A stretch of 64,000 bases of DNA. It comes from a phage. The notes below the pieces were generated by a model, which had not been told where the DNA came from, searched no databases, and saw only the letters and a list, made by a program, of their open reading frames with translations. Location of the stretch: sequence record PZ452591.1. The stretch is one strand, 5' to 3'. Made by a program: the position numbers and the translations under genes. Below, one piece after another: positions 12,757 through 17,841 of the stretch (position 1 is the first letter of the stretch; each line of letters begins with the position of its first letter).

Positions 12757-13617
12757 TTACACCGCCATCTTTCCTTTAATTGGCGGGTGAGATACATAGT
12801 TGTTAAGAACAAAATTATGCGGCTTTGCGAATTGACTCAACCAAAATACCTGCGATTCTGTGTCCCATTCATCAAATTCATCTGGAAATTTTAATTGCAA
12901 TTCGCATAAATCCATAGGTTCACGACGCAAAATTTCTTTACATTGTTCTACGTGATTCATATAGATATGAGTATTACCACCAGAAAATATCAAATCTCCA
13001 GGAATAAGATTACACATCTTAGCTACAATATGAACTAACGTAGCATATGATGCAATATTAAATGGAAGACCGAGGAAAACATCTACCGAACGTTGATACC
13101 ACTGCAAATCCAAATAGCCATTACGCACATTAAACTGATAGAACATATGACAAGGCGGTAATGCCATATATTTAAGTTCAGCTGGATTCCATGCAGAAAC
13201 AATTTGACGCCTATCATTTGGCAATTTTTTAATACGATCAACAACTTCTATAATTTGGTCTACACCGCCAAAATCGCGCCATTGTTTTCCATAAATTGGA
13301 CCAAGTTCACCGCTATGGTATCCTAAATCTTTTGCTTGATTTTCGTAATTTTCATCCCAGACTGTTTTGCCTTGAATTAATGAATCATGTTGAATTAATC
13401 GTAAATCATTGACATTTGTGCTTCCCGATAAAAACCATATTAGCTCAGCAATGCAAGCTTTCCAGGCGAGCTTCTTAGTTGTTACTGCAGGAAAACCTTT
13501 AGTTAAATCCCAGCGTAATTTAGTACCGAACAAAGCAATTGTTCCTGTGCCCGTTCGGTCATCGGTTTCATAGCCATTTTCAAAAATGTCTTTAATTAAA
13601 TCTTGGTATTGTTTCAT
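12757..13617 (-). CDS. td: thymidylate synthase, 286 aa, uninterrupted
   Basis: ATG at 13615-13617; continuous 286-aa ORF, no intron or I-TevI-like ORF. Confidence 0.93.
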   Translation of the reverse strand: MKQYQDLIKDIFENGYETDDRTGTGTIALFGTKLRWDLTKGFPAVTTKKLAWKACIAELIWFLSGSTNVNDLRLIQHDSLIQGKTVWDENYENQAKDLGYHSGELGPIYGKQWRDFGGVDQIIEVVDRIKKLPNDRRQIVSAWNPAELKYMALPPCHMFYQFNVRNGYLDLQWYQRSVDVFLGLPFNIASYATLVHIVAKMCNLIPGDLIFSGGNTHIYMNHVEQCKEILRREPMDLCELQLKFPDEFDEWDTESQVFWLSQFAKPHNFVLNNYVSHPPIKGKMAV

Positions 13618-13662: not shown

Positions 13663-14010
13663 TCAATACGGTTTAGCATCAAATTTTCTCTCAATTTCAG
13701 GCGTGAAATATAATTCTTTACCGCGTTTGGAAAAGCGACCAATAATATGATAATTATTCTCATCAAACGTAATATTACCAATATCCATAGCTTTCAACCA
13801 AATATCGATATTTCTATCCAGCTTTATGTCAAAATTCCAATACGGAGAACTATTACCGAAAATACTGCAAGCGGATTCAGTGAAACAGCTACTATAAATC
13901 TTGTCTTTAGGAACTACTAATTGATAGACACCTTTAATAAACTGAGGACCCTGCCACTTTGGCTGTTTCGCGTCTTCTTCTAATAGAATAGGGTAATAAT
14001 TAAAATTCAT
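13663..14010 (-). CDS. hypothetical protein, about 115 aa, between frd and td
   Basis: in-frame ATG at 14008-14010; fills the space between frd stop (14031) and td start (13617). Confidence 0.5.
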   Translation of the reverse strand: MNFNYYPILLEEDAKQPKWQGPQFIKGVYQLVVPKDKIYSSCFTESACSIFGNSSPYWNFDIKLDRNIDIWLKAMDIGNITFDENNYHIIGRFSKRGKELYFTPEIERKFDAKPY

Positions 14011-14030
14011 ATTTTCCGTCACGCGTTATT

Positions 14031-14859
<829 letters not shown>

Positions 14860-14869
14860 ATTATTTTCC

Positions 14870-15112
14870 TTAAACAGACTTTTTCACAATTTTCCAATCA
14901 GCTTTAAACTGCTCGACGTCAGAATGGTAAATCCAAAATCCTGCGCTTTCTCCATCCTCATAAAGAGGGCATCCATCACATTCATCTTCCCACCCCATAT
15001 CGCGTAAAAGGTGTTCAGCTTTTTCAACAAGTTCAGAATCTTTACCGATGATATTATAATACCATTTACCTCTAACTTCCGAGTCTTTGATGCTCTGACG
15101 TTGTAATCTCAT
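14870..15112 (-). CDS. hypothetical protein, 80 aa
   Basis: ATG at 15110-15112 with GAGGAG Shine-Dalgarno. Confidence 0.55.
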   Translation of the reverse strand: MRLQRQSIKDSEVRGKWYYNIIGKDSELVEKAEHLLRDMGWEDECDGCPLYEDGESAGFWIYHSDVEQFKADWKIVKKSV

Positions 15113-15169
15113 TTTATTCTCCTCAAGTTGATAAGGCTATAGTATCATTACCATAGCCTGTTGTAACAT

Positions 15170-15397
15170 TTATTTTTGGATTAAGCCCATATAAAATTTA
15201 GCATCTTCAGGATACATGCCATCACAATACTCATTGGTCATAAAACTAATAAGGTCTTCAAGAGGACCTTGGACCTCAATTTGAATACTAAAGAATTGGG
15301 TATCTTTAATGTAAGCCATACTCAAAGAAGGATAACGATTGCGGATAACTTCGTAAGTGTATTCAAAATCAACAATATCAATATTAACCTTAGCCAT
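15170..15397 (-). CDS. hypothetical protein, about 75 aa, paralog A (frd.x family)
   Basis: ATG at 15395-15397 preceded by GAGGAAAATAA; about 50% identical to the 15880-16107 ORF. Confidence 0.55.
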
Positions 15398-15426
15398 TTT
15401 ATTTTCCTCATGTAGTTGATAGGGTA

Positions 15427-15456
15427 ATAGTATCACACTACTACCCTACTGTAAAC
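15427..15456 (-). promoter_or_regulatory. early promoter (-35 GTTTAC, 18-bp spacer, -10 TACTAT)
   Basis: minus strand GTTTAC at 15451-15456, TACTAT at 15427-15432; lies within an inverted repeat AGGGTA...TACCCT. Confidence 0.45.
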
Positions 15457-15836
15457 TACTTTTTGAAAGTTTTTCGCAAAAGTTCAATGATTTCATCTAC
15501 ATTGTTTTCATCTACAATGCAGTGAATTTTTATTACGCCAGAAACCGGGTCTTTGACTTCAACTTCTTCAGAAGTCGGTTCTTTATACTCACGAAAACAA
15601 TGAAATTCGTCTTCGCAAATTTCTAAAAGTCTATCTTTGAGGTAAAAATGCTTTCCATTTGCGCATTCAATGTGTTTTACTGCTTTATATCCATTAGCGA
15701 CGGAAACTTCTTTAACTTCAAACCATCCGCCATTATCTCGAATCGCTTTAACTATTGATGAATTAGAACGTGGGCTATAATTAATAAATGTATCAATAAG
15801 TCTTGGAACAAGTTCATACTTTTTGCCAATATACAT
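15456..15836 (-). CDS. hypothetical protein, 126 aa
   Basis: ORF track; ATG at 15834-15836. Confidence 0.55.
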   Translation of the reverse strand: MYIGKKYELVPRLIDTFINYSPRSNSSIVKAIRDNGGWFEVKEVSVANGYKAVKHIECANGKHFYLKDRLLEICEDEFHCFREYKEPTSEEVEVKDPVSGVIKIHCIVDENNVDEIIELLRKTFKK

Positions 15837-15879
15837 TACGTTTCCTCATTTTGATAGGGGCTTGATAGCCCCTTGATAA

Positions 15880-16107
15880 TTACTGTTCAATAAATCCTGT
15901 GTAAAATTCTACATCTTCAGCATCCATACCGTCGCAGTATTCATTAACCATAAACTGTTTAAGACGATTTAAAGGACCTTCAATAACAACTGAAACATTA
16001 CAATTAGGATCATTTAGTGCGCTTATGATACTAAGTTCAGGATAACGATTACGAATAATTTCTTCAATATATTCAAAATCAACAACATCAATATCAATTT
16101 TAGCCAT
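15880..16107 (-). CDS. hypothetical protein, about 75 aa, paralog B (frd.x family)
   Basis: ATG at 16105-16107 preceded by GAGGAAAATAAT; paralog of 15170-15397. Confidence 0.55.
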
Positions 16108-16150
16108 ATTATTTTCCTCTTTAATCATCAGCAGTATTGCCGATAGTTGT

Positions 16151-16180
16151 ATAGTACCATAAAGCTTTATGCTTGTAAAC
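16151..16180 (-). promoter_or_regulatory. early promoter cassette (-35 GTTTAC, 18-bp spacer, extended -10 TGG-TACTAT)
   Basis: copy of the recurring motif GTGGTACTATACAACTATC with upstream A/T-rich tract. Confidence 0.5.
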
Positions 16181-16204
16181 AGTTTTGTGAAAAAATTTTT
16201 TGAA

Positions 16205-16230
16205 ATAAAAAAAGGGACCTCTAGGGTCCC
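16205..16230 (-). terminator. intrinsic terminator after gene 32
   Basis: hairpin GGGACC-CUAGA-GGUCCC followed by U-run on minus strand, 24 nt past the gene 32 stop. Confidence 0.6.
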
Positions 16231-16253
16231 CGATTAATTAGTAATATAATCTG

Positions 16254-17159
16254 TTAAAGGTCATTCAAAAGGTCATCCAGGTCCGTGTCATCAGCACTAG
16301 ATGAACTGCCAGAGCTTGAGCTCATAAAATCATCTTCAGTTTTTGTTTTGAAGTCATCAACATTGAATGCATCCAAATCATCAGCAACTTTATCAGCTTT
16401 CTTAGCAGCAGTTGCAGCGGCACCGCCCATCACAGCAGTTCCCATAACTTGACCGAATTTAGTATTCAGTTCTTCAAACGATTTGAATTTATCTTTAGAA
16501 GTCATTTCAGAAAGGTCAACCATTTGTTCGAACAGTTCTTTCTGGAAAGATTCATCATCAATGTTTGGAATCGCAGATTGATTCAGGAATTTAGATTCGT
16601 CGTAGTTACTAAATCCAGAAACCTGTTTAACTTTCAGTACAAAGTTAGCACCTTCCCACGGGCAAGTTACATCAACCGGAGTTTCACCCATTTCGACATC
16701 AACCGCAATCATTGCATTGATTTTATCCCAGATTTTCTTACCGAAACGGTATTTAAATACTTTACCTTCGTTTTCTGGAGCAGCTGGGTCTTTTACAACA
16801 AGAATATTAGCCCAGTAAGAAGTTTTACGTTTAACAAGACTGTACTCTTTATTGTCAGTGTTGTACAGATCATTTTTACTGATGTATTGACATACTGGGC
16901 AAGAATCGTAATCACCATGGGTAGATGAACATGTTTCAATATACCATTTACCATTTTTCTTGAAACCGTGATTTACAAGAATTGCGAATGGTGCTTGTTC
17001 ATCATTTTTAGACGGAAGAAAACGAATTACTGCTTGACCGTTACCCGCATTATCGAGTTTCAGTTTCCACTCGCCTTTATCTTCAGAAGAAAAACCTTTA
17101 TTGCCATTCAGTTTAGCCATTTGTGCAGCAAGTTCAGCAGTAGATTTACGTTTAAACAT
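16254..17159 (-). CDS. 32: single-stranded DNA-binding protein gp32, 301 aa
   Basis: ATG at 17157-17159; matches recalled T4 gp32 including acidic C-terminal tail. Confidence 0.95.
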
Positions 17160-17215
17160 TTTATTTCCTTTTTAATTTAATTAACAGTTGGTGCTATGAC
17201 ACTTTACCTCATAGC
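17160..17215 (-). promoter_or_regulatory. gene 32 translational operator (hairpin/pseudoknot stem plus AU-rich unstructured leader)
   Basis: minus strand GCUAUGAGGUAAAGUGUCAUAGC inverted repeat followed by UUAAUUAAAUUAAAAAGGAAAUAAA-AUG. Confidence 0.6.
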
Positions 17216-17841
17216 TGGCATAATTCGCAATACTCTGGGTCTTCGAGAGGTATCCAACCTGAGTTGAAATACTTTACCATCGATTTAGCAGTTGTATCAG
17301 TTATATTTATATTACCTTTAACTCTTCGCCATCCAGGAGTTTTACCGTACAGATTAGAGGATAATAATAACTCATAATTCTCGTAAGCAATATGAGATAA
17401 TTTCCAAGACTCTATATTAGCTCGTGATGTTTTCCAAGGTCTAAAATCGTCACGGTTCATATAATTAGCCAATCTCATATGCTCTCTAACTTCCGGGTCT
17501 TTGGCTGGATGAGTTTCACCACTCACACCAAATCCACCACCAGCATATACCAGATTAAAATAGTCTGGATTATCTCTGGCATTTACTTCAAGTTGGTATT
17601 TTCGTTCTGCTTCAATAACATCCAAGTCATCATCAATTTGAATTATTTTAACGCTCGGTTTTTGAAGCATTAGCGCATTCAAAAATCTTTTTTGTTTACA
17701 TGAGCTCCAGTATTCCTTTCCGGAAGAGTCATATATTATTCCGTTCTCAAATGAGCAATTTAATTTACTACCGATATAGTAGTATGGCGGAGTCTTATTT
17801 TTGACACGGTCTTCAAATGTAAACCAATATACTATATTCAT
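17209..17841 (-). CDS. GIY-YIG family putative homing endonuclease (seg-like), 210 aa
   Basis: ATG at 17839-17841; N-terminal IVYWFTF...YYYIGS and downstream ERKYQLEVNARDN resemble the GIY-YIG catalytic core. Confidence 0.65.
   Translation of the reverse strand: MNIVYWFTFEDRVKNKTPPYYYIGSKLNCSFENGIIYDSSGKEYWSSCKQKRFLNALMLQKPSVKIIQIDDDLDVIEAERKYQLEVNARDNPDYFNLVYAGGGFGVSGETHPAKDPEVREHMRLANYMNRDDFRPWKTSRANIESWKLSHIAYENYELLLSSNLYGKTPGWRRVKGNINITDTTAKSMVKYFNSGWIPLEDPEYCELCQL

Follow-up and report, generated by a model that had tools for sequence, protein, structure and literature searches.

The window, by which we mean the whole 64,000-nt stretch of phage record PZ452591.1 that was analysed and in which all coordinates below are positions, comes from a T4-like phage (Tequatrovirus), and the stretch described here is part of the frd–32 hyperplastic region. 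All genes from td through gene 32 lie on the minus strand. By increasing coordinate they are td (12757–13617), a 119-aa ORF (13663–14022), frd (14031–14612), an 84-aa ORF (orf84, 14605–14859), frd.1 (14870–15112; 80 aa, DUF5417, Pfam PF17438), a 75-aa gene that we call copy A (15170–15397), frd.2 (15456–15836; 126 aa, PF03197 FRD2, 113.7 bits), a second 75-aa gene, copy B (15880–16107), and gene 32 (16254–17159), which encodes the 301-aa ssDNA-binding protein and has counterparts annotated as gp32 in VEc74, PP01 and T4. The downstream neighbour of copy A is frd.1, and the upstream neighbour of copy B is gene 32, whose intrinsic terminator was located by a terminator scan at 16203–16231 on the same strand (GGGGACCCTAGAGGTCCCT followed by a T-run, hairpin ΔG −12). 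For T4 Frd.2, an LSm-like fold has been predicted (PMC12152347).

Copies A and B sit on either side of frd.2, 710 bp apart. The initial annotation had described them as two paralogous 75-aa genes that flank a 126-aa ORF, share about half of their residues and lie between frd and gene 32, in a region that varies among T-even phages, and all of this was borne out. The pairwise alignment that it proposed as a check is ungapped over 75 residues, with 38 of 75 identities (51%), 69% positives and an E value of 9e-29. The ORF map and synteny with T4, PP01 and VEc74 place the locus between frd and gene 32, and the gene content of the region differs among T4, PP01, KMB22, JLBYU24, JS98 and VR5. Comparison with the T4 frd genes, also proposed there, puts copy B at the canonical T4 frd.3 position and both copies in the Frd.3 family: they match PF05798 (Phage_FRD3) over the complete model (positions 1–75 of 75) with 123.4 bits (E 5e-36) for copy A and 110.9 bits (E 4e-32) for copy B, the gathering score being 28.1 bits. 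The pair are paralogues within a single family, with a similarity far beyond chance. They resemble T4 Frd.3 in length, acidity (pI 4.0–4.3) and genomic neighbourhood, but T4 and almost all of its relatives carry one frd.3, whereas the phage examined here carries two that are only 51% identical.

A profile HMM search of 1.84 billion representative proteins recovered nine proteins, which confines the Frd.3 family to T4-like phages. Two long proteins in the same search (P0044 and P0046) gave partial or repetitive matches.

At the DNA level, the two copies are well conserved with each other only over the ribosome-binding site (RBS) and the first ~24 codons (92 nt, 82% identity). Their synonymous divergence is saturated, with a dS of 1.27 overall and 2.19 in codons 25–58. 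The sequence GAGGAAAATAA(A/T)ATG precedes both start codons, and its only exact matches in the window are these two (15395–15409 and 16105–16119). Versions with one mismatch stand ahead of five further genes of the window, orf84 and frd.1 among them, so the GAGGAAAATAA motif is the generic T4 early-gene initiation region and not the mark of a duplication.

The structure prediction suggested in the initial annotation gave confident AlphaFold2 models of both proteins (pLDDT 95.5 for copy A and 93.1 for copy B) with identical secondary structure: β-strand 2–8, α-helix 11–21, β-strands 26–32 and 38–44, and α-helices 46–57 and 63–70. On these models, Frd.3 is confidently predicted to be a small acidic cytoplasmic α/β protein (pI 4.3 and 4.05 for the two copies) with a β-α-β-β-α-α order of elements and a generic ferredoxin-like fold. 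The residues that are invariant in the family comprise D7, D10-F-E-Y13 and R19-N-R-Y22 in β1 and α1, followed by G44-P-L46, E56-Y-C58, G60, E64-D65 and F68-Y69, and the β2–β3 hairpin together with α2 forms the hypervariable part. Fold searches with the models returned only generic ferredoxin-like neighbours and uncharacterised Frd.3 orthologues.

The spacers in front of these genes match published PeSL cassettes in sequence, with putative promoter and attenuator activity. A PeSL (promoter-early stem-loop) is defined as an early promoter, a stem-loop and a Shine-Dalgarno sequence that in hyperplastic regions precede small ORFs of unknown function (PMC2839356), and for the T4/PST pair the published promoter consensus is TTTACW-N17-TAYWAT (PMC4122927). 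The window contains 14 matches to this consensus, all of them on the minus strand, as against 0.44 expected. The enrichment is limited to the T4-specific consensus, as a generic σ70 scan found 12 sites versus 10.1 expected.

All spacer elements are, like the genes, on the minus strand. The predicted PeSL upstream of copy A (15420–15455) is made of a promoter, TTTACA-N17-TACTAT (15427–15455), and a hairpin, TAGGGTA...TACCCTA (15420–15448; ΔG −18.9, z −3.2). Read on the gene strand, the spacer is TAGTTTACAGTAGGGTAGTAGTGTGATACTATTACCCTATCAACTACATGAGGAAAATAAAATG and folds into a 12–14 bp hairpin that holds the −10 box inside its 3′ arm. A PeSL of Dhakavirus type precedes frd.1 (15134–15167); its promoter, GTTACA-N17-TACTAT, has one mismatch to the consensus, and its hairpin (AGGCTATGGTA/TACTATAGCCT, 15134–15159) has a ΔG of −14.7 and a z of −3.5. 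For copy B, the match to the PeSL consensus and the promoter scan place an early σ70-type promoter at 16151–16179 (TTTACA-N17-TACTAT with a TG upstream of the −10 box). It contains a weak palindrome, CATAAAGCTTTATG, whose fold is not significant (z −1.3), and the terminator hairpin of gene 32 is located just upstream. Finally, the hairpin AGGGGCT-ATCA-AGCCCCT occupies 15856–15873, between copy B and frd.2 (ΔG −12.9, z −2.8). Its stem is kept in T4, PP01 and JLBYU24 and its loop differs; the promoter and terminator scans found neither a promoter nor a T-run with it, and it looks like a degraded "half PeSL". The terminator scan found no T-run at any of the spacer hairpins.

Two claims of the initial annotation about these spacers need amendment. 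Both of the inverted repeats that it listed are real hairpins (z −3.2 and −2.8), but the second stem is AGGGGCT and not AGGGGGCT, which has one G too many. The overlap that it proposed between hairpins and promoter elements exists upstream of copy A, but the AGGGGCT hairpin, downstream of copy B and upstream of frd.2, shares no position with a promoter. A −10 box is overlapped in two cases only, by the hairpin ahead of copy A and by the one ahead of frd.1.

Among related phages, the corresponding element in front of frd.1 or frd.3 has an invariant GATACTAT, which contains the −10 box, within one of three self-complementary stems: GGGTAGTAG/CTATTACCC, GGCTATGGTA/TACTATAGCC or GGTCTATAG/CTATAGACC. 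With RNAalifold, the hairpin variants gave neither a shared structure nor covarying pairs, their stem types pairing in shifted registers, and no Rfam family matched between positions 14000 and 17500.

The resemblance to the PeSLs described by Arbiol et al. 2010 (PMC2839356) and Comeau et al. 2014 (PMC4122927) extends to an early σ70 promoter of the T4/PST consensus, a stem-loop between or overlapping the promoter boxes, a Shine-Dalgarno sequence and start codon at the 3′ end, a position upstream of small ORFs in a hyperplastic region, the presence of a degraded "half" element, and breakpoints of indels between related phages that fall inside the element. There are also differences. The stem-loops of PST PeSLs lie just upstream of the promoter, whereas here the −10 box is in the 3′ arm, a class described for phi1/RB49. 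As cargo, there is a diverged further allele of a gene that the phage has already, instead of an ORFan.

The two Frd.3 proteins have different affinities. Copy B shares 97% of its residues with the single-copy allele found in Tequatrovirus TB004 and 69% with T4 Frd.3; both its sequence and its position mark it as the resident Tequatrovirus allele. Copy A is the same protein as its counterpart in VEc74 (100% identity), 85–91% identical to Dhakavirus/Gaprivervirus Frd.3 (84–88% for the Dhakavirus alleles), and 49–68% identical to Tequatrovirus alleles. Gene order draws the same distinction between positions: it is 32–frd.3–frd.2–frd.1 in T4, PP01 and most Tequatroviruses, and 32–frd.2 copies–orf232–frd.3–frd.1 in Dhakavirus JS98 and in VR5. 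The window has frd.3-type genes at both the T4-type and the JS98/VR5-type position.

This dual affinity is mirrored in the DNA, where a segment that resembles Dhakavirus and Gaprivervirus (~15122–15427, minus strand, 88–98% identity) and was probably imported comprises the frd.1 PeSL, copy A and the 3′ part of the copy A PeSL. The flanking DNA of frd.1 and frd.2 is 94–97% Tequatrovirus-like and 64–72% Dhakavirus-like. Along the locus, the body of frd.1 is 96% identical to PP01 and 70–72% identical to JS98, VR5 and TH57, but in the spacer upstream of it these values become 67% and 90–98%, respectively. Copy A is absent from PP01 and 88–92% identical to the JS98, VR5 and TH57 genes, and the stretch from its RBS to the 3′ stem arm is 83–90% identical to the same three phages. 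Beyond this point, in the 5′ stem arm, the −35 box and the frd.2 stop, identity to PP01 (and also to T4) is ~97% and that to JS98, VR5 and TH57 is 64%.

The initial annotation had interpreted the pair as a local duplication. An in-place tandem duplication across frd.2 within the phage lineage, followed by divergence, would be in keeping with two genes of the same family, length and orientation that are 710 bp apart and have near-identical RBSs and N-terminal codons. It would leave several observations without a place, however: copy A matches alleles of another genus at 85–91% identity and copy B at only 51%; dS between the copies is saturated (~1.3), while the flanks differ from those of relatives by ~5%; the spacer adjoining copy A is of the foreign type as well; near-identical single-copy counterparts exist for copy B; and identity switches sharply at the edges of the cassette. 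We consider such a duplication improbable. Instead, the identity profile argues that copy A is probably a foreign allele that was captured by PeSL-mediated modular shuffling.

Compared to PP01, the window contains ~285 extra bases, and a single 37-bp stretch of PP01 (1609–1645 of the PP01 region) aligns to both ends of the insert. These ends form an imperfect direct repeat around the cassette, with one member (RBS, TATCAAC, 3′ stem arm) at about 15110–15147 and the other at 15395–15431, both on the minus strand; the core of the repeat is 19 nt long, 89% identical and spaced by 285. The right breakpoint falls within GTAGTTGATAGG and the −10 core (~15415–15431). The left one lies in the frd.1 5′ end and RBS, where the sequence is common to all lineages and placement at base level is impossible.

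We infer the direction and timing of the transfer by parsimony and would reconstruct the recombination route as follows. Recombination with a co-infecting Dhakavirus/Gaprivervirus-like phage would have put copy A between frd.2 and frd.1. One crossover would have occurred in the conserved 5′ end and RBS of frd.1, and the other, an ectopic one, in the conserved core of two PeSL elements (GATACTAT...CCTATCAAC), the conserved promoter, hairpin and Shine-Dalgarno sequence providing the short homologies for ectopic recombination. The outcome would be a cassette of ~285 bp surrounded by imperfect direct repeats. Since the 3′ part of the frd.1 spacer is also of the donor type, a double crossover fits better than the strictly reciprocal integration of a mini-circle by a single crossover, although a mini-circle may have been an intermediate. 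The involvement of PeSLs in indels has precedents (PMC2839356, PMC4122927). The exact donor was not found among the database phages, where the best Dhakavirus and Gaprivervirus matches are 88–93% identical in DNA.

The junction between copy A and frd.2 was found in only one of 50,697 phage records, that of VEc74, so that the same two-copy layout is already present in GenBank. About 730 of the phage records searched have one frd.3. The identical copy A protein occurs in 38 blocks of a large assembly collection, and in all ten places listed from that collection the order is 32–Frd3–FRD2–Frd3–DUF5417, which gives the layout in VEc74 and at least ten other assemblies. An IMG/VR scan yielded 13 loci, all of them single-copy. 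A concatenated B+A query, intended to count two-copy phages, was uninformative in that it merged single-copy loci into one place, and TB004, the sole other record with two places, was found to have one copy only within 3 kb on either side.

These assemblies bear on whether the arrangement exists in nature. As the breakpoints lie in repeated sequence, mis-joins are possible there, and an assembler could have joined the alleles of two co-assembled phages at the repeated promoter and RBS sequence. The same order is found, however, in the complete genome of an isolate, VEc74, and in independent ENA, Logan and NCBI assemblies of up to 168 kb, which leaves an assembly chimera hardly credible.

Across the two-copy contigs listed, the copy A protein is invariant and the cassette DNA is 97–99.4% identical. 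Position B, in contrast, is occupied by at least four alleles (that of the window, the T4 type, the 76-aa KMB22 type and an intragenic hybrid). The DNA of copy B is 93% identical to the other alleles in the first 24 codons and only 67–73% identical in codons 25–58. An invariant copy A in a nearly uniform cassette next to a variable position B points to one recent event. It is difficult to reconcile with a Tevenvirinae ancestor that had frd.3 at both positions, of which Dhakavirus kept A, most Tequatroviruses kept B and the lineage examined here kept both. Such an ancestor would account for the occupation of both positions in nature (next to frd.1 in JS98 and VR5, next to gene 32 in T4), and the direct repeats around copy A could mediate deletion as well as result from insertion. 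Yet vertical descent would not be expected to produce the discontinuity between a cassette that is 88–98% Dhakavirus/Gaprivervirus-like and a frd.1 body at 70–72%, nor does it agree well with a junction seen in one record out of 50,697. We regard retention from a two-copy ancestor as unlikely, and capture of copy A from another genus as the probable origin of the second gene.

In this proposal, each Frd.3 gene would be an autonomous immediate-early cassette (TTTACA-N17-TACTAT, GAGGAAAATAA and 75 codons) read by the host σ70 RNA polymerase. Folding of the hairpins, both those that overlap a −10 box and those that do not, would be confined to read-through RNA or single-stranded DNA, and on read-through transcripts they would serve as attenuators or insulators. 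Attenuator or insulator action has been shown for PeSLs in phi1/RB49, and the promoter and attenuator activities of the spacers described here are predicted by their sequence likeness to such elements. In T4, the frd.3 mRNA is reported to belong to the most abundant NAD-capped RNAs (bioRxiv 10.1101/2024.04.04.588121).

As to what Frd.3 does, a literature search on phage frd.3 gave no function, and comparison with known anti-defence and defence families produced no characterised match, be it in sequence or in fold. A frd.3 allele has been classified as a "cloud" gene in a Tequatrovirus pan-genome (PMC10236363). Between copy B and T4 frd.3, dN/dS is higher in the variable part (0.68) than in the N-terminal part (0.13). 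Values for the variable region range from 0.3 to 0.7, below 1, and so do not establish positive selection. From the small size, acidity, early expression and allelic hypervariability of Frd.3, we infer that it may bind a host or defence target that varies, and that its specificity would be broader with two alleles. A fuller version of this idea, which we put forward as a speculation that may well prove wrong, is that Frd.3 is an allele-diversified host-takeover or counter-defence protein whose β2–β3/α2 face (codons 25–58) sets its specificity, that alleles with their own immediate-early promoters are stacked, and that the slot by gene 32 is kept hyper-recombinogenic by PeSLs, perhaps with a contribution from SegG cutting within gene 32. 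If so, two stacked alleles would neutralise two variants of a host target and widen the host range.

The capture of copy A would make the locus a clean base-level example of accessory-gene gain in T4-like phages, with a foreign allele entering via a crossover inside a promoter–hairpin cassette between genera that share just ~70% DNA identity in the neighbouring genes. It is nevertheless an ordinary fresh instance of known PeSL-mediated shuffling, the gene family, the plasticity of the region and the mechanism having been described already. Frd.3 also stands out among early genes for its number of alleles: at least four, and intragenic hybrids besides, occur at one position in genomes that are otherwise ~95% identical. 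Such richness is what one typically sees in proteins that interact with variable host factors.

Comparable arrangements exist in T4-like phages. In JS98 (Dhakavirus), another small gene of the same hyperplastic region is likewise present twice, as frd.2a and frd.2b, but these copies are adjacent, unlike copies A and B. The T4 internal-protein (IP) locus (Repoila et al. 1994, cited in PMC4122927), as far as the description in PMC4122927 goes, is similar in that related phages swap alternative small genes there, at conserved intergenic motifs of a non-essential region, and different in that it is another locus with another protein family. The site between frd.2 and frd.1 that copy A occupies in the window carries other cargo elsewhere: an unannotated 22-codon hydrophobic mini-ORF in T4, and in JLBYU24 an 86-aa ORF that is 96.5% identical to orf232 of JS98.

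The spacer between frd.2 and frd.1, where the copy A cassette sits in the window, is occupied by other cargo in related phages. In T4, a hydrophobic mini-ORF of 22 codons, MFAPYIMAAVMLVCLYLLIKAC, which is missing from the annotation, lies in this spacer (L008 1206-1343, corresponding to NC_000866 146005-146142). The mini-ORF has a Shine-Dalgarno sequence of its own and is immediately preceded on its 5′ side by the same promoter-hairpin that is found upstream of copy A in the window. In the Tequatrovirus JLBYU24, an 86-aa ORF (L007 1727-1987) is located at the same site. Its product is 96.5% identical to that of orf232 of the Dhakavirus JS98, which makes this ORF another case, independent of copy A, of import from a different genus at the frd.2/frd.1 site.

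Recombination is also evident within Frd.3 genes. The comparison loci L027 and L028 2270-2518, as well as protein P0017, represent intragenic recombinant alleles in which the N-terminal and central parts are of the T4 type and the C-terminal part is of the window type. Protein P0010 is an analogous hybrid of T4 and Dhakavirus Frd.3.

Near copy B, between genes 59 and 32, the window carries segG, a 210-aa ORF on the minus strand (17209-17841) that encodes a free-standing GIY-YIG homing endonuclease and displays 99% identity to T4 SegG over its C-terminal 129 aa. A comparison of the homologous regions showed that segG is absent from PP01 and from VEc74, a phage with the same two-copy layout. As gene 32 is the target of SegG (PMC2988022), the repair of a SegG-induced break in this gene might promote allele exchange at the adjoining copy B.

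The Shine-Dalgarno sequence of frd.1, GAGGAG (within 15110-15124), includes GGAG, the motif cleaved by T4 RegB, whereas that of both Frd.3 genes is GAGGAA (within 15395-15409 and 16105-16119). This difference in sequence hints at differing fates of the frd.1 and Frd.3 mRNAs.

Several GenBank records (H99, H113, H176, and others) label the 75-aa Frd.3 gene as a “single-stranded DNA-binding protein”, and one record labels it as a “putative peptidase inhibitor”. Such labels were probably transferred from the adjoining gene 32. In the search of representative proteins, the Frd.3 profile gave partial or repetitive matches, which may be spurious, in two long proteins, P0044 of 1068 aa and P0046 of 2044 aa (11 stretches).

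The td gene of the window (286 aa, 12757-13617, minus strand) is uninterrupted, unlike that of T4 and several two-copy contigs, in which the td intron with I-TevI is present. Two minus-strand ORFs represent further small cassettes, both lacking in T4: an ORF of 84 aa (phrog_3183, 14605-14859) that shares 8 nt with the start of frd, and a GTG-initiated ORF of 119 aa (phrog_1928, 13663-14022). KMB22 and JLBYU24 carry yet another 110-119-aa ORF (DUF7247) between orf81 and frd.1.
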